This document shows positions 1,635 through 50,754 of a stretch of 64,000 nucleotides of DNA, one piece after another. The notes below the pieces were generated by a model. That model was not told where the DNA came from. It ran no database searches and was given only the letters and a program-made list of their open reading frames with translations. The stretch's first letter is position 1. Every line of letters begins with the position of its first letter. Source of the DNA: Minisyncoccota bacterium (GTDB taxonomy: Bacteria > Patescibacteriota > Minisyncoccia > Phycocordibacterales > UBA9973); NCBI GenBank assembly GCA_041657885.1, contig JBBABB010000001.1, positions 198,926 through 262,925 on the forward strand, in the 5' to 3' direction. Position numbers and translations under genes: made by a program.

Positions 1635-1663
1635 ATTTTTAGTAGTCGGACTACTAAAAATTT
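1633..1663. repeat. REP-like palindrome TTTTTAGTAGTC-G-GACTACTAAAAA between convergent genes
   Basis: perfect palindrome related to the REPs flanking the RAYT at 19.4-20.1 kb; probably also acts as a bidirectional terminator. Confidence 0.55.
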
Positions 1664-17185: not shown

Positions 17186-17196
17186 CTAAAACAAAA

Positions 17197-17236
17197 ACAC
17201 CTCTCACTAATTTAGTGAGAGGTGTTTTTGTTTTTG
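17197..17236 (+). terminator. rho-independent terminator after the csp gene
   Basis: CACCTCTCACT-aattt-AGTGAGAGGTG followed by a T-run. Confidence 0.6.
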
Positions 17237-19391: not shown

Positions 19392-19418
19392 AATTTTAGT
19401 AGTTCAACTACTAAAATT
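19392..19418. repeat. REP palindrome overlapping the last three codons of the RAYT gene
   Basis: AATTTTAGTAGTTCAACTACTAAAATT, 13-bp arms. Confidence 0.7.
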
Positions 19419-20058
19419 CTACCTCTTCTTTCCTCTTTAATGTTTCTTTCCATGAAGACTGAGCAAATTCTAGATAATCTTTTTTATTTTTAAAATTAGA
19501 TAAAACTATTTCTTTATTACACAAACCTTTTACTTCGTCTTTTGTGTATTCTTCTAGGCTTGATTTACTAAATTCTGAAATCAAATTTCCATTTTCATTT
19601 CTATTATTAAAATTTACATAGGCACTTAAATTAAGAAGATAATTATTATCTTCTATTATTTTTGACTTGAATCTCCCTTGAAATAAAACACCGGATCTAT
19701 CATACTTTTCATTAAAATATCTAGTATAGCCACCGACACGTTGCATAAATTTTTCAATACCATTATCAACAAGAGGGGAAAGAATGAGATGAAAATGATT
19801 TTTGTTTATACAATAAGCAACAATGGAGACTAGCGGTTTTTTAGTAGTTGAACTACTAAAATTTAACTTTTTCTTTAAATGTTGTTGAAATATACTTTGA
19901 ATCGGATCAATCACATTAAATTCAACAAGACTTTGCATAAATCTTTTAAGGTCTTCGTTGTCTAAAATAATATTTCTTCTATCCGAACCTCTATTATAAA
20001 TATGATAATATTTTCCTACTTCAAAAATATGATCTCTCATAGGATTATTATACCACAT
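19411..20058 (-). CDS. REP-associated tyrosine transposase (RAYT; IS200-like Y1 HUH, COG1943 family)
   Basis: YHIYNRGSDRRNI, HUH motif NHFHLIL, catalytic region YTRYFNEKYDRSGVLFQGRFKS...NYLLNLSAYVNFN. Confidence 0.85.
   Translation of the reverse strand: MWYNNPMRDHIFEVGKYYHIYNRGSDRRNIILDNEDLKRFMQSLVEFNVIDPIQSIFQQHLKKKLNFSSSTTKKPLVSIVAYCINKNHFHLILSPLVDNGIEKFMQRVGGYTRYFNEKYDRSGVLFQGRFKSKIIEDNNYLLNLSAYVNFNNRNENGNLISEFSKSSLEEYTKDEVKGLCNKEIVLSNFKNKKDYLEFAQSSWKETLKRKEEVEF
19839..19861. repeat. REP palindrome inside the RAYT coding sequence (encodes FSSSTTKK)
   Basis: TTTTAGTAGTTGAACTACTAAAA in frame within the CDS. Confidence 0.7.
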
Positions 20059-20063
20059 TTATA

Positions 20064-20090
20064 AATTTTAGTAGTTGAACTACTAAAATT
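20064..20090. repeat. REP palindrome 6 nt upstream of the RAYT start codon
   Basis: AATTTTAGTAGTTGAACTACTAAAATT. Confidence 0.7.
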
Positions 20091-20128
20091 TTGTAATTTA
20101 TGATAATAAAGTGATATAATAGAAATAT

Positions 20129-39881: not shown

Positions 39882-41378
<1,497 letters not shown>

Positions 41379-41383
41379 TTAAT

Positions 41384-41474
41384 TTCTCCCCTCCTTACCA
41401 AGGAGGGGAATGAGGGGAGGTTCTTAATTAATTAGGAACCCCTCCCCAGCCCTCCCCTTGGTAAGGGGAGGGGG
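41384..41474. repeat. G+C-rich triple-hairpin element (copy B) between atpD and atpC
   Basis: differs from copy A at only a few positions. Confidence 0.65.
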
Positions 41475-41487
41475 AAATAAAAAACAT

Positions 41488-45087: not shown

Positions 45088-45112
45088 ATAAGTTTTTACT
45101 CTTTGAAATAAA

Positions 45113-45155
45113 AATGATACAAATTCTGCACCTGCAGAATTTGTATCATTTTTAG
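45113..45155 (+). terminator. rho-independent terminator (18-bp perfect stem)
   Basis: AATGATACAAATTCTGCA-cc-TGCAGAATTTGTATCATT followed by TTT. Confidence 0.7.
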
Positions 45156-45322: not shown

Positions 45323-47737
45323 ATGTTTACTCAAATGAGAAATCTAAATCTCAAGTTTGTTTCTTCGGTCGTATTCGCCATTACTTTTCTAGTCGGCGGA
45401 TTTTTTGTAATCAATAATGCAAAGGCAGCAACTATAACCCTATATCCTAACGGAATTGGTAATTTTGATGATTGGACATTGGGGACATCGTCATCTGTTA
45501 CGAAATTTAACGCTGTTGGAAGTAGTGATACTAATGACAATTCATATATTAAAGAGACTACTGATGATCAAGCTCAAACCTTTATTATACCAGGATCAAG
45601 TTTATCTGTTGGATCGACGATTAATTCAGTAACTCTAAATGTAATTGCTCGTAAATCAGAAGGAATTGCAAATATAAAACTGAGATTAGAAAACGGAAGT
45701 TTAAGCACAAATGATGGACCAACTAATGAACTCATAGATACATATATAACATATAGTCGTATCCTAACAACAAACCCCTTTACTAATCTGGCTTGGACAT
45801 TATCAGAAGTAAATTCTTGGACAACTAATTTTGGTGTTTTATATTCTGATATTGGCACAAATAATGGTGGTAGAGTTACTCAAATTTCAGTTGTTGTTGA
45901 CTACACTAATGAAATAACACTTTCTAGTATCGCAATTACCACTCCAGCCACTAAACTTTCTTACACAGTTGGGGATTCATTAGATATTTCAGGATTAGTG
46001 GTTACTGGAACTTACAGCGATGATTCTACTTCAGTCGTAACACCTGATAGTGTAACTGGCTTTAACAGCTCAGCCCCTGTTACTGATCAGGTTTTGATTG
46101 TTACAGTTAATAATAAGACAATAACTTATACAGTGACTGTAACTTCTGCATCTGATGGAGTAGCAACAGCATTCAATAATATTTCAACAACTCTAACATC
46201 GGCTGGTATTGCAAATAATCTAAATACAGTTACAGGTTCAAATTATACAAATTTCTCGGGTTTGTATTTTGAAAAATCAATTGATGGAGTGAAAATGGGG
46301 AAGATAACATTTACTTCTGCGTTAGATTTATCAAAGGATGCAACAAAAACTTTCTTACAAAACTTGGGCACTAAAATGGATATGGCCCAAGCTGGAATTA
46401 TAGGTCTTGATTTTTCAGATAATACTCCAGATATTTTAACAGATGATCCATCTCTTAAAGGTGTAAGCGCAACAATTGAATTTTACGGGCTTGATAAACT
46501 TGGTTTTGATGCATCTTCTACCTCGGATGAAATCAATGCAAAATTAATTGCTTATGATGATGATGAAAATATATTAAATATGTCAGATCTTGTTGATACC
46601 CCGGGAATATACACTCCTCCCGTTGGTGTTTGCGAAGTTGGCGGAGTATGTTATGTCTTTTCCGTTGATGTTAATCACTTTACTAAATATAAAATTGATA
46701 ATGCTACGGAAACCACTCCCAATATTAATGGTAACGCTAATCTAGGGGGAAACACTACGGGGGTTGTTATTACCAATCCTGATCAAGCGGTTACTGTTAC
46801 CGTTGGAAGTGGCACAACTAATCCAACAATCGATGTTAGTGCATTCATTAGTCTTGTGGAAGGAGAAAAGACGGGAACATTGCCGGAAATTAACATAGCT
46901 TCTGATGTAGCAGATGTTGCTATTCCCGATAATACGATTGTGACCGGTCCGGCTGATTGGAACGGAGTTATTGATGCCCCAACATCAGGCACACCAGCAG
47001 GGGGAAATGCACCAGCTGGATTTAATGTTGGCGATACTGTCATTTCAATTGGTTCTGACAGTGGGACATTAGTCTTTGATAAACCCGTAACAATATTACT
47101 TGCAGGAGTTACAGGCACTGTTGGTTATAGACCAGCTCTATCAAATACTTGGCAAACAATAACTAACGTATGCGGTGGAAGTTATAATACACCCACTGCG
47201 CCAACAGCACCTGGTGAATGTGCTATCAGTAATGGCACTGACACTAAAATTGTTACCTATCACTTCACAAGTTTTGGGGGACTCGATGCCGTTTCTCATT
47301 CCAATAATAATGGTAGCAGACCAGCAACCCTAGCCGTTTCTGCAATTACAACTGTGGGATGCAATCCTAAATCTGGTGATTTATATAATGTAAACACAGG
47401 AGAGCGTTGTGCTAATGATACTTCTTTTATTAATCCTATACCCACCACAAATGTTAATGTAATAAATAAGGTATCAGTCAAAACTACTCCCAAACCCAAA
47501 CCTACACCTAAACCAAAAGAATTAGTGGTAGAGCCAATACAATCAGTAAATGAATTAATAGAGACGTCAGTTGAACAAGAAACTCCTGAAAATAATCTCA
47601 CTGCAAGTGTAGGAAGAGTAAGTTCATTAATAACTGGACCTATTTCTATCTGGACAATCTTATTAATTATTGTAATTCTTTTAAGTGGAGGATATGGAAT
47701 TTATAGTTTAAAGAAAAATAAAAAACAAAAAAAATAA
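45323..47737 (+). CDS. surface protein paralog 2 (804 aa): same N-terminal leader, Ig-like Thr-rich repeats, one Cys repeat, PKPKPTPKPK linker, C-terminal TM
   Basis: MFTQMRNLNLKFV leader compared with MITQMRTLNLKFI; C-terminus SLITGPISIW-TM-SGGYGIYSLKKNKKQKK. Confidence 0.65.
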   Translation: MFTQMRNLNLKFVSSVVFAITFLVGGFFVINNAKAATITLYPNGIGNFDDWTLGTSSSVTKFNAVGSSDTNDNSYIKETTDDQAQTFIIPGSSLSVGSTINSVTLNVIARKSEGIANIKLRLENGSLSTNDGPTNELIDTYITYSRILTTNPFTNLAWTLSEVNSWTTNFGVLYSDIGTNNGGRVTQISVVVDYTNEITLSSIAITTPATKLSYTVGDSLDISGLVVTGTYSDDSTSVVTPDSVTGFNSSAPVTDQVLIVTVNNKTITYTVTVTSASDGVATAFNNISTTLTSAGIANNLNTVTGSNYTNFSGLYFEKSIDGVKMGKITFTSALDLSKDATKTFLQNLGTKMDMAQAGIIGLDFSDNTPDILTDDPSLKGVSATIEFYGLDKLGFDASSTSDEINAKLIAYDDDENILNMSDLVDTPGIYTPPVGVCEVGGVCYVFSVDVNHFTKYKIDNATETTPNINGNANLGGNTTGVVITNPDQAVTVTVGSGTTNPTIDVSAFISLVEGEKTGTLPEINIASDVADVAIPDNTIVTGPADWNGVIDAPTSGTPAGGNAPAGFNVGDTVISIGSDSGTLVFDKPVTILLAGVTGTVGYRPALSNTWQTITNVCGGSYNTPTAPTAPGECAISNGTDTKIVTYHFTSFGGLDAVSHSNNNGSRPATLAVSAITTVGCNPKSGDLYNVNTGERCANDTSFINPIPTTNVNVINKVSVKTTPKPKPTPKPKELVVEPIQSVNELIETSVEQETPENNLTASVGRVSSLITGPISIWTILLIIVILLSGGYGIYSLKKNKKQKK

Positions 47738-47780
47738 AATAATTAAAGATTTTTTGAGATAAAAATGTTAGAATCTTAGA

Positions 47781-49526
47781 ATGACCCAAGAGCAGGCCTT
47801 TTTAATAATGAAAACTGGAGTGAATATTTATCTGACTGGAAGTGCAGGTAGTGGTAAAACATTTCTCTTGAATAAATATATTGTGTATTTGGAAGACCAT
47901 AATATTCCCGTGGCAGTTACTGCTTCAACGGGTATCGCTGCGACTCATATGAACGGCATGACTATCCACTCGTGGTCAGGAATCGGAATAAGAAACTTTC
48001 TGGATGAAAAAGGGTTCCAACAATTGGAAGAAAAGAAATACCTTTGGAAACGTTTTGAAAAAGCGCGCGTTTTAATAATAGATGAGGTTTCAATGCTTCA
48101 TGCTAGTCAGCTGGATATGGTTGAAAAAGTTTGCCGAAGATTCAAAAGAAATGATAAGTCATTCGGAGGATTGCAAGTAATACTTTCTGGCGACTTTTTC
48201 CAATTGCCACCAATAAACAAAGTAGGGAATGAACCCGCCTCCGACGGAAGCTACGGCCCGCTTCGCCAAAGCTCCAGCGAGGCGAGCGAGGCAAAGAATG
48301 AAAATGGTATGGTTTTTAATAGCAAGGCTTGGCAAATATTAAATCCGGCAATTTGTTATATAGAAGAACAGCACCGCCAAAAAGACGACGTTTTGACAGA
48401 AATTTTGAATACAATCCGCACTAATAGTACCGAAGAAAGACACTATGAACTTTTGAGAAGTCGTATTGGGGCTAAATTAAAAAATGAAGTAAAAGCGACT
48501 AAACTATATACTCACAATATCAATGTTGACGATATAAACAACATTGAACTTTCACAAATCAAAAACGAAGAAAAAATTTCCCATATGACTTCATCAGGTC
48601 CTTTACCACTTGTAGAACTACTTAAAAAAAGCTGTCTTGCTCATGAAAAATTGAAATTAAAAGTAGGGGCCGAAATAATGTGCATCAAAAATAATTTTGA
48701 GGAAGGGTACGTGAACGGTTCGCGTGGTAAGGTTATAGGTTTTATAGAAGAAAATGGAAACCCAATTATAGAACTTTATAATGGTAAGAAAATAAGTTTA
48801 AAACCAGAATTGTGGGCAATTGAAGAAGATGGGAAGATTAAGGCTTCAGTGTCTCAGATACCACTTCGTCTTGCTTGGGCTATCACAATACACAAAAGCC
48901 AAGGGATGTCACTTGATAACGCCGAAATAGACCTCTCTAAAACTTTCACTTATGGTATGGGTTATGTTGCGCTTTCAAGAGTACGAACGCTTGAGGGAAT
49001 AAGCCTAGTTGGATTTAATGCCGATGCACTTCAGGTGGACCCGAAAGTTTTGGAACAAGACCTTGATTTGAAAAATCAAAGTTTCCATAATGAACTCTTG
49101 TTTAAGAAATTGAAAAAAGACGAGCAAGAAAAATTGGAAGTTGATTTTATCAATCGTATGGGGGGCAACCTTCACGGAAGTAGTAACAAAATAAAAAGAG
49201 GGAATATTAAAAATACAAAAATTCCAACAATTTTAATTACAAAAGAATTATTGGATAGAGGGATGAATATAAAAGAGATAGCTAAAGAAAGAAATTTAGT
49301 AGAAGGCACAATAATCAGCCACACAGAAGATATTATAAAAAAATATCCTGAAACAATTATTACACATATCAGACCATCACAAAAAAATATAGACCTAGTT
49401 AAAAAAGCCAATAACAAATTAAAAGGGGATGCTAAAGGAAAATTAAGTCCAATCAAAACGATTTTAGAAAGAGAAGGTCATAATATAACATTTGAAGAAA
49501 TACGAATAGCGAGGTTGTTTATTTAA
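47781..49526 (+). CDS. PIF1/RecD-like SF1B DNA helicase with C-terminal HTH domains
   Basis: Walker A GSAGSGKTF, IIDEVSM, ITIHKSQG motifs; G+C-rich in-frame segment at 48231-48293. Confidence 0.85.
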   Translation: MTQEQAFLIMKTGVNIYLTGSAGSGKTFLLNKYIVYLEDHNIPVAVTASTGIAATHMNGMTIHSWSGIGIRNFLDEKGFQQLEEKKYLWKRFEKARVLIIDEVSMLHASQLDMVEKVCRRFKRNDKSFGGLQVILSGDFFQLPPINKVGNEPASDGSYGPLRQSSSEASEAKNENGMVFNSKAWQILNPAICYIEEQHRQKDDVLTEILNTIRTNSTEERHYELLRSRIGAKLKNEVKATKLYTHNINVDDINNIELSQIKNEEKISHMTSSGPLPLVELLKKSCLAHEKLKLKVGAEIMCIKNNFEEGYVNGSRGKVIGFIEENGNPIIELYNGKKISLKPELWAIEEDGKIKASVSQIPLRLAWAITIHKSQGMSLDNAEIDLSKTFTYGMGYVALSRVRTLEGISLVGFNADALQVDPKVLEQDLDLKNQSFHNELLFKKLKKDEQEKLEVDFINRMGGNLHGSSNKIKRGNIKNTKIPTILITKELLDRGMNIKEIAKERNLVEGTIISHTEDIIKKYPETIITHIRPSQKNIDLVKKANNKLKGDAKGKLSPIKTILEREGHNITFEEIRIARLFI

Positions 49527-49552
49527 ATAATAATATAGAATAAATATAATAG

Positions 49553-49697
49553 AAGTGAGTTTAATAAGTAAATGCAAAAACTTGCATTTTGTGTGTTTCC
49601 CCCTAAACTACGCTATAGCGTAGAATGTGGGGAAATGATTTAAGAAGAAAAGATACTATTAGGTGCGTAGTGCTGCGTTTACTTATTGAACTCACTT
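49553..49697. repeat. 145-nt element bounded by a 20-bp inverted repeat, with nested internal hairpins
   Basis: AAGTGAGTTTAATAAGTAAA ... TTTACTTATTGAACTCACTT; inner hairpins AAATGCAA/TTGCATTT and TTTCCCC(CTACGC-tata-GCGTAG)GGGGAAA. Confidence 0.5.
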
Positions 49698-49728
49698 AAA
49701 TTACACTTAAATGGTATAATAAAAGTAT

Positions 49729-50103
49729 GTGAAAAATACATATACTACAATCAGGCAAATTATTATCTTTATCCTTATTATTGTCATTATTGGAGCAATA
49801 GTTTTAAGTGTTAACCCTAAAAAAGAACATGTTATAGTCCCAGAGGATAATACAACTATAAATAACGGAAATGAGAAATTATTTGCTGAAAAATATATCA
49901 CAGATAACATAGGTACTATCGCAACCAATAAACCAGTTCTTGGTGGTTCTTGGTATGTTGTATTTATCATTGTAAACCCTATAACTCACACAGGAGAGGT
50001 CACATACGAAGATGGGCATATTCAAAGTAAGGCAAGCATCACATATTTATATCAAGAAAATCCGCAAAGTATTACAATTACAAAATGGGAGACGAGGGAA
50101 TAA
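49729..50103 (+). CDS. hypothetical secreted/membrane protein (GTG start)
   Basis: N-terminal TM; TGGTATAAT -10-like sequence upstream. Confidence 0.35.
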   Translation: MKNTYTTIRQIIIFILIIVIIGAIVLSVNPKKEHVIVPEDNTTINNGNEKLFAEKYITDNIGTIATNKPVLGGSWYVVFIIVNPITHTGEVTYEDGHIQSKASITYLYQENPQSITITKWETRE

Positions 50104-50158: not shown

Positions 50159-50200
50159 AGATAGAGCCTTAGACTCTATCTAGAGTCTAAGGCTCTATCT
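50159..50200. terminator. 42-nt perfect palindrome between convergent genes (bidirectional terminator or binding site)
   Basis: AGATAGAGCCTTAGACTCTA-tc-TAGAGTCTAAGGCTCTATCT, 20-bp arms. Confidence 0.6.
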
Positions 50201-50202
50201 CT

Positions 50203-50388
50203 TTATCGGTATTTCTCGCGCCAGTTATAATCTTCTTCTTCGTCGTCTTTCTTATCTACAATAGGAGTGCCACATTTTTGGCAAACCTCATCATAAGAAC
50301 GCAGTCCACAACGAGGACAAACTGGCTCTTTTACTTCAGGTTTTTCTCCATCGGAACCATATTTATTATTTATATCTTCTTCGTCCAT
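50203..50388 (-). CDS. small acidic zinc-ribbon protein (ORF track extends to 50463; likely start MDEEDINN)
   Basis: CPRCG...CQKCG four-Cys ribbon. Confidence 0.5.
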   Translation of the reverse strand: MDEEDINNKYGSDGEKPEVKEPVCPRCGLRSYDEVCQKCGTPIVDKKDDEEEDYNWREKYR

Positions 50389-50451
50389 TTTTATATTATA
50401 ATTGATTTTTAAATTTTTGGAAATAGTATATAATATAAATATTATTAATAA

Positions 50452-50476
50452 AAAGCTACACAAATTATATTCTGAA
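50452..50476 (+). promoter_or_regulatory. conserved 25-nt motif AAAGCTACACAAATTATATTCTGAA (copy B)
   Basis: see copy A at 34196. Confidence 0.4.
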
Positions 50477-50580
50477 AAAATAAAATTTGTTTCGCATTAA
50501 AAACTATATGGCAAAAGGAGATGGGCATAGAAAAGAGGTTAAGAAACCTAAAAAAGTAAAGAAGTAGTTTCTATAAAAAA

Positions 50581-50754
50581 GCTACATTGAAATAGTCTTA
50601 TCAAAGGGGCTTTGGAGTGAGGAAGCGAATACTTGGAGCTTCCGCAAGACCTTTTGAGATATCTTTGTAATCAAAGTATCCAAAAGGTGTACTGTTCCTG
50701 TAAGGAACGACGGTATACCCTTTGAGAAGAGCTATTTCAGTGTAGCTTTTTGCA
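50581..50754 (+). ncRNA. candidate structured RNA of unknown class upstream of eno
   Basis: 16-bp closing helix GCUACAUUGAAAUAGU/GCUAUUUCAGUGUAGC, inner helix CAAAGGG/CCCUUUG, three hairpins (GGAAGC/GCUUCC; CCUUUUG..CAAAAGG; GUUCCU/AGGAAC), then UUUUU. Confidence 0.45.

Follow-up and report, generated by a model that had tools for sequence, protein, structure and literature searches.

The Correia elements (CREE) of Neisseria, the ERIC/IRU elements of enterobacteria and the RUP elements of Streptococcus are intergenic palindromic elements which are transcribed, and REP, ERIC and Correia-type elements, behaving as transcribed intergenic palindromes, act as exonuclease barriers or as processing sites. 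The 145-base element described here (positions 49553-49697 of the window, by which we mean the whole 64-kb stretch of DNA that was analysed) resembles Correia/CREE, ERIC/IRU and RUP elements in its layout, these being about 100-170 bp long, non-coding, bounded by 20-26-bp terminal inverted repeats, placed between genes near promoters, and forming a long RNA hairpin when transcribed. To our knowledge, the non-coding elements of CPR/Patescibacteria genomes are almost undescribed, and searching the literature for either 6S RNA or MITEs in Patescibacteria/CPR brought up no relevant work. As CPR genomes are small and tightly packed, the 185-nt structured spacer that holds the element stands out.

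The window comes from an uncultured Paceibacteria/Nomurabacteria (CPR) bacterium and belongs to the 198-kb metagenome contig k141_114272 of ENA ERZ27247322. The element lies between the gene of a PIF1-like helicase and that of a small membrane protein (GTG start at 49729; 124 aa, no Pfam match). Pfam assignments for about 50 proteins depict the window as an ordinary chromosomal region, with genes for aminoacyl-tRNA synthetases, DnaB, cell-wall, glycolysis and pentose-phosphate functions, the ATP synthase operon, enolase, pyruvate kinase and RarA. In the window and in 13 of 18 compared relatives, the gene downstream of the helicase is preceded by a TGnTAnAAT motif with the start codon 4-12 nt further on; the small membrane-protein gene has no Shine-Dalgarno sequence, whilst the enolase gene of the same window has a strong AAGGAG. 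An extended -10 so close to the start, with no Shine-Dalgarno sequence, points to a leaderless mRNA for the small membrane protein. The element had been described as sitting immediately upstream of this -10 box, and the extended -10 indeed starts 14 nt past the 3' arm.

Of the 13 relatives with the box, 10 have 3-40 nt separating the helicase stop codon from the extended -10; the other three, L007, L098 and L094 (related loci are numbered with the prefix L), have 74, 82 and 117 nt, respectively, and the window has 185 nt. The right flank of the element, TTAAATTACACTTAAATGGTATAAT, can be aligned with the short spacers of L096, L099 and L093. Set against the 3-40 nt of most relatives, the 185-nt spacer marks the element as a lineage-specific addition. 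Hairpin gains at the helicase spacer differ by lineage (L007, L094, L098, L096 and L003/L005), and with different extra hairpins in different lineages the spacer is a hot spot for such gains. In L092, a perfect palindrome occurs directly 3' of the helicase gene, equivalent to those at gene ends in the window, which measure 20-23 bp, have loops of 1-2 nt and are probably bidirectional terminators (Table 1).

The repeat architecture given in the original prediction was recovered in each of its parts. A 20-nt inverted repeat (AAGTGAGTTTAATAAGTAAA, 49553-49572, and TTTACTTATTGAACTCACTT, 49678-49697) with one mismatch has 105 nt between its arms, the AAATGCAA / TTGCATTT pair is present at 49570-49577 / 49582-49589, and the nested TTTCCCC[CTACGC-TATA-GCGTAG]GGGGAAA structure is present at 49596-49635. 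The GCGTAG hexamer occurs three times within 63 nt (49618 and 49665 on the + strand, 49608 on the - strand), three of the nine occurrences in the 64-kb window. The full arms are 24 nt long with two T/C differences, each giving a G-U pair in the + strand fold but an A-C mismatch in that of the - strand; by a rough estimate, chance would yield this pattern, G-U on the + strand only, ~6% of the time. A weaker extension of the arms reaches 36 nt at 83% complementarity (49541-49576 / 49674-49709). Allowing up to three mismatches, the 20-nt arm matched the two known sites only in the 64-kb window, against 0.04 expected, and the window as a whole contains 7 inverted repeats (arms of at least 20 nt, at most one mismatch, loop of at most 200 nt) compared with 0 in 30 dinucleotide-preserving shuffles. 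The predicted fold of the element has an energy of -58.9 to -61 kcal/mol (z -8.7 to -8.8) on the + strand and -52.9 kcal/mol (z = -9.6) on the - strand. The inverted repeat and the fold are non-random, beyond what chance produces.

In the predicted structure the closing helix is followed by a second helix of 10 bp, which lengthens the predicted rod to about 34 bp. The small local hairpin competes with both the inner end of the closing helix and the second helix, and is unused in the minimum-free-energy and centroid structures. An alternative pairing is possible between the GCGTAG of the second helix and the CTACGC at 49608-49613. Folded alone, the core hairpin reaches -20.3 kcal/mol (z = -4.9), and at its centre is a perfect 16-bp palindrome, CTACGCTATAGCGTAG. 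The sole internal ORF, 23 codons from 49572, was rejected, as it is without a ribosome-binding site and is not conserved in L094.

Table 1 Coordinates of the element, its flanks and other structured features in the window and in related loci (L).
Feature	Position	Strand	Basis or remark
Promoter-like site, TTTAAA (49522-49527), 17-nt spacer, TATAAT (49545-49550)	49522..49550	+	10/12 consensus
5' arm of closing helix, AAGTGAGTTTAATAAGTAAATGCA	49553..49576	+	24/24 positions pair with 49674-49697, two as G-U
Small local hairpin, AAATGCAA-aaac-TTGCATTT	49570..49589	+	Repeat search
Second helix, 5' strand, ACTTGCATTT	49580..49589	+	Pairs with 49661-49671 (minimum-free-energy, centroid)
Core nested hairpin, TTTCCCC-CTAAA-CTACGC-TATA-GCGTAG-AATGT-GGGGAAA	49596..49635	+	40 nt
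Purine-rich stretch, 25 nt, predicted unpaired, TGATTTAAGAAGAAAAGATACTATT	49636..49660	+	Centroid structures
Second helix, 3' strand, AGGTGCGTAGT	49661..49671	+	Holds third GCGTAG (49665-49670)
3' arm of closing helix, TGCGTTTACTTATTGAACTCACTT	49674..49697	+	Repeat search and folding
Ancestral spacer remnant with extended -10 TGGTATAAT (49712-49720)	49698..49720	+	Alignment, relatives' spacers
Second repeat-bounded element, ends AAATAGTCTTATCAAAGGGG / CCCTTTGAGAAGAGCTATTT	50590-50737 (outer 50576-50751); L094 3044-3138; L098 1707-1801		148 nt between coordinates in window, 95 nt in L094 and L098
Lysine-rich 19-aa ORF, MAKGDGHRKEVKKPKKVKK	50508-50567	+	Just upstream of second repeat-bounded element
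Y1_Tnp (IS200-like) gene	19411-20055	-	Pfam
Palindrome TAGTAGTTGAACTACTA	19397-19413; 19842-19858; 20069-20085; related copy 1640-1656		4 matches vs 0 expected
G+C-rich compound palindromes, ~95-100 nt, e.g. TCCCCTCCTTACCAAGGAGGGGAATGAGGGGAGG...	29966-30058; 39883-39976; 41379-41480		
Perfect gene-end palindromes	17188-17234; 45109-45154; 50159-50200		Probable bidirectional terminators
~116-nt family, ends TCCCGTTAGAGAT / ATCTCTAACGGGA	L096 4731-4910; L015 5795-5910; L005 6852-6970; L055 7293-7408		Single arm at L037 1667
Tracts dense in substitutions/indels	47684-47957; 50284-50525		Compared with L090, L091

One part of the element is found in another species. L094 (JGI contig Ga0255658_102827), whose helicase shares 81% protein identity with that of the window, carries at the syntenic position the sequence TTTCCCCCTAACTTACGCTATAGCGTAGAATCTGGGGAA, identical to the core hairpin at 36 of 40 positions, whilst the rest of the spacer is unalignable and the 24-nt arms are missing. 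The core hairpin, the sole part of the element with such a counterpart, is older than the rest. Its four differences in L094 comprise one C-G to U-G change in the inner stem, where pairing is kept on the + strand only, one change in an internal loop and two which break peripheral pairs. A covariance model of the core hairpin (R1) scored both copies at 70-73 bits on the + strand vs 33-37 bits on the - strand, and a search with it found nothing beyond the syntenic L094 copy, apart from weak matches to G+C-rich palindromes that are unrelated. Identity of 90% across species in a spacer whose flanks are unalignable argues for constraint, and from this comparison with one informative homologue the core hairpin is probably constrained and probably read on the + strand. 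After the core hairpin in L094, GGAAGTCCGACTTC and TTTAATTTT form a + strand terminator-like hairpin with a U-tract; L098 has the same terminator without the core hairpin.

Among G+C-rich palindromes, the window itself contains compound forms at three sites. Two of them, near-identical to each other, separate atpG from atpD and atpD from atpC, and the third is upstream of the release-factor gene; these are probably the first repeat family meant by the original prediction, which called the present element the second.

Several signals bear on transcription. The promoter-like site stops 2 nt ahead of the 5' arm, with a predicted start at ~49557/49558, within the arm, and its -10 with the bases downstream, TATAATAGAA, is like other promoters of the genome, e.g. 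that at 20107-20126 upstream of the GAPDH gene. Such a site could drive an independent small RNA gene, one of the two identities first proposed for the element: an RNA of ~138 nt (roughly 49557-49694) with its own promoter and its ends paired in the long closing helix, which would display the conserved hairpin and the 25-nt purine-rich loop in a layout loosely recalling 6S RNA. The proposal is compatible with the + strand G-U pairs, the favoured + strand fold, the promoter-like box and the conserved core, which in L094 is preceded by a TAAAAT box (by eye) and then followed by the terminator as a compact sRNA-like unit. It sits poorly with the syntenic site being empty in most relatives, close ones included, as would not be expected of a housekeeping RNA, and with promoter-like hexamers being common in AT-rich DNA (14 observed in this window vs 9 expected from shuffles). 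The terminator scan called nothing at the element, and the 3' arm has no U-tract after it (the sequence 3' of the arm is AAATTACA and that 3' of the core hairpin TGATTTAAG), on which grounds a canonical intrinsic (Rho-independent) terminator was also rejected.

The element likewise matched no family of structured RNA. The Rfam check suggested in the original prediction gave, at gathering thresholds, three tRNAs only in the window and nothing at the element; none of the families considered (6S, SRP, Y RNA, riboswitches, ribozymes and others) reached threshold, and a permissive scan of 49400-49850 (E up to 10) yielded chance matches only, with E >2 and outside the element. Neither nhmmer nor a covariance model of the whole element (R2) found a full-length homologue in 567-609 kb of related loci, R2 returning generic long hairpins and the L094 core only. 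Perfect 24-bp helices are, in addition, atypical of 6S-like RNAs, and no blastn-short match complements the purine-rich loop elsewhere in the window. Taken with the evidence in its favour, an independent small RNA gene appears to us unlikely, if a serious candidate. A variant of it, in which a small RNA gene is newly born, the conserved 40-nt hairpin of the helicase 3' UTR having been encased in a young 34-bp helix behind its own promoter to give a stable RNA of ~140 nt which displays that hairpin and the purine-rich loop, seems distinctly unlikely; if true, it would offer a rare snapshot of a stable small RNA arising from a 3' UTR. Retron, bridge RNA, omega RNA and CRISPR-type readings were rejected, as no partner protein gene was found in the window; for retrons, no reverse-transcriptase domain was present in any scanned protein of the window.

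The other identity first proposed was a MITE, that is, a non-autonomous transposable element bounded by terminal inverted repeats of 20-24 bp, with further copies outside the window. The element does have terminal inverted repeats, a length of 145 bp and no coding capacity, it is an insertion relative to most relatives, and related Paceibacteria possess a repeat-bounded family of their own, the TCCCGTTAGAG family (~116 nt; L005, L015, L055 and L096), which is shared by several genomes and is not confined to a single site, so that elements of this kind do exist in the group. Searches for copies did not sustain the proposal. Comparison of the element with the window and with 81-99 loci, among them 80 around the orthologous helicase from GTDB species representatives, gave self matches only (nhmmer and blastn-short), and neither a second arm copy (up to 5 mismatches) nor an interior copy was found in the 64-kb window or 99 loci. 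Viral contigs contained no exact match to the 20-mer AAGTGAGTTYAATAAGTAAA and none to the core-hairpin pattern, and blastn against phages and plasmids gave no match to the element. In JGI metagenome contigs the exact 20-mer had 7 matches, each to a single arm in unrelated sequence and read as chance, in a scan of incomplete coverage, since it missed a JGI contig that carries the element. The element is a real orphan, single-copy in the data examined and matching no known RNA family. The original prediction had staked itself on other copies, conservation or transcription: no other copy was found in these searches, but the core hairpin is conserved.

Nor do the surroundings of the element look like those of a transposed unit. 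No direct repeat abuts both arms and there is no convincing target-site duplication; a flanking 12-nt direct repeat, TATAATAGAAGT / TATAATAAAAGT, considered as a target duplication or a tandem duplication of a promoter, does not adjoin the right arm, and its similarity was equalled in 197 of 2000 shuffles and by unrelated promoters. No DDE transposase or recombinase was detected among about 50 scanned proteins of the window, where the only gene related to mobile DNA is the Y1 (IS200-like) transposase, the hairpins flanking which are unrelated to the element. Finally, the presence of the core without arms in L094 is not what insertion of the element as a unit predicts. We therefore regard a MITE as quite unlikely.

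A third possibility is that the element is a functionless quasi-palindrome, generated by replication template switching or by local inverted duplication around an existing hairpin and tolerated because the promoter downstream of it works without a -35 element. Its near-perfect arms imply a young origin, it is single-copy and missing from most relatives, the spacer is a hot spot of differing hairpin gains, and the promoter that follows has an extended -10. The 90% identity of the core across species is at odds with this for that part of the element, as is the fact that both arm imperfections keep pairing on one strand, and we consider a wholly functionless origin very unlikely. Alternatively, the DNA itself may act, as an operator or cruciform modulating the adjacent promoter or as a segment invertible between the inverted repeats. 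The perfect central palindrome, of which 14 bp are kept in L094, and the position just upstream of a promoter are consistent with the former, and invertible promoters share the geometry of 20-24-bp inverted repeats flanking about 100 bp. Yet the palindrome centre and the -10 box are not equally far apart in the window (~100 nt) and in L094 (~82 nt), no promoter with a score of at least 9/12 inside the repeats points toward the gene, no recombinase was seen among the roughly 50 proteins, and one orientation only occurs in the window and three strain-level assemblies. A role at the DNA level is highly improbable.

We tentatively favour, at somewhat less than an even chance, a palindrome transcribed on the + strand within the helicase 3' region, built around an older hairpin and serving as an RNA barrier or processing site. 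The element would be a single-copy, lineage-specific nested palindrome inserted in a normally very short spacer between the helicase and membrane-protein genes. Its oldest piece would be the 40-nt hairpin, which in L094 occupies the same place just before the helicase terminator, and the 24-bp arms, second helix and purine-rich loop, seen in this species-level lineage only, would be young. Transcription of the + strand may come from helicase read-through, from the promoter-like box before the 5' arm, or from both. The RNA would then fold into a ~34-bp rod with the conserved hairpin as its cap, and the rod may act as a barrier to 3' exonucleases, as a double-strand-specific (RNase III-type) processing site, or as both, so marking the 3' end of the helicase transcript. 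On this reading the element would behave like REP, ERIC and Correia-type palindromes, and would be neither a MITE in active transposition nor one of the known small-RNA families.

We infer transcription, its strand and the barrier or processing role from the sequence features. Action on the + strand is supported by the arm imperfections, which are G-U on that strand, by the lower + strand folding energy, by the core change in L094, which pairs on the + strand only, and by the + strand terminator after the L094 hairpin. As a counterpoint, a palindrome that arose recently at the DNA level would show a perfect 24-bp helix as well, and two G-U pairs are weak evidence of strand. As most relatives are without such an element, any function would be dispensable.

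Three strain-level assemblies carry the element in the same orientation (L089/L090, JGI 3300028032, and L091, ENA ERZ27249422), with a single SNP within it relative to the window (49638 A>G) in the unpaired loop. The strains diverge in patches, and the 2.3-kb tract that includes the element shows no more than 5 differences, a near-identical stretch in which the strain comparison is uninformative on selection. Elsewhere the window has two tracts dense in substitutions and indels relative to the otherwise near-identical L090 and L091, which suggests recombination patches.

About 1 kb downstream is a second repeat-bounded element, shared by the window, L094 and L098. Its 20-nt ends are 100% identical in the three species, whilst its interior is variable, and in L094 and L098 it lies directly 3' of the small membrane-protein ORF; in the window it is upstream of the enolase gene. 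The predicted fold of the window copy has an energy of -79.7 kcal/mol (z = -9.2) and is followed by a U-run, and Rfam gave no match for it. It may be a conserved ncRNA or else a complex terminator. Just upstream of the window copy is the lysine-rich ORF, to which an ORF in L006, MAKGVSHKKEVKKPKKAKK, is similar.

The present value of the 145-base element is modest, as it is single-copy with no known partner. Should it be transcribed, it would provide a handle on mRNA 3'-end formation or on the birth of small RNAs in unculturable organisms; otherwise, it is one more orphan palindrome. What the locus itself shows is a hot spot of hairpin gain in the short spacer that separates a core gene from a conserved leaderless promoter, with one 40-nt hairpin kept across species. 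The most useful by-products of the analysis are this conserved hairpin, the hot spot beside a leaderless promoter and the other repeat-bounded elements.

Compared with known systems, the element recalls 6S RNA in its long closing helix joining the ends, asymmetric single-stranded region, terminal hairpin and similar order of size. It differs in that Rfam 6S models do not match it, its closing helix is perfect where that of 6S is interrupted, the 5' side of its bubble is only about 6 nt, and it is not conserved among close relatives, whose genomes may still encode a 6S RNA at another site. With REP/REPIN-RAYT systems the likeness is twofold: the window encodes a Y1_Tnp flanked by short palindromes, and the threefold GCGTAG of the element recalls the GTAG of REPs. 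With one palindrome copy falling within the called ORF and a related one 18 kb off, the Y1_Tnp gene and its hairpins resemble an arrangement of the RAYT/REP type, here in a CPR genome. However, the hairpins around it share no sequence with the element, whose arms are not themselves palindromic as REPs are and whose copy number is one; membership of this system was rejected, the TAGTAGTNNNACTACTA hairpins at 1640, 19397, 19842 and 20069 being unlike the single-copy element.

Closer to hand, the TCCCGTTAGAG family comes from the same host group, with 13-15-nt inverted ends around about 100 nt, and occupies the same type of site, beside the extended -10 promoter of the gene that follows the helicase. 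This family, with a conserved internal TTAAT..ATAC and no Rfam match, does not occur in the window; its copies in L096 and L015 lie between the extended -10 and the start codon, at a site that is empty in L013. It has no sequence similarity to the element and occurs in multiple genomes and at more than one site, with a nested second copy in L096, and where its members are placed between promoter and start codon, the element is an orphan upstream of the promoter. Correia, ERIC and RUP elements, for their part, number tens to hundreds of copies per genome, against one known copy here, and Correia elements have a TA duplication, none being seen at the element. The element also differs from all three in that its central hairpin stands alone in another species.
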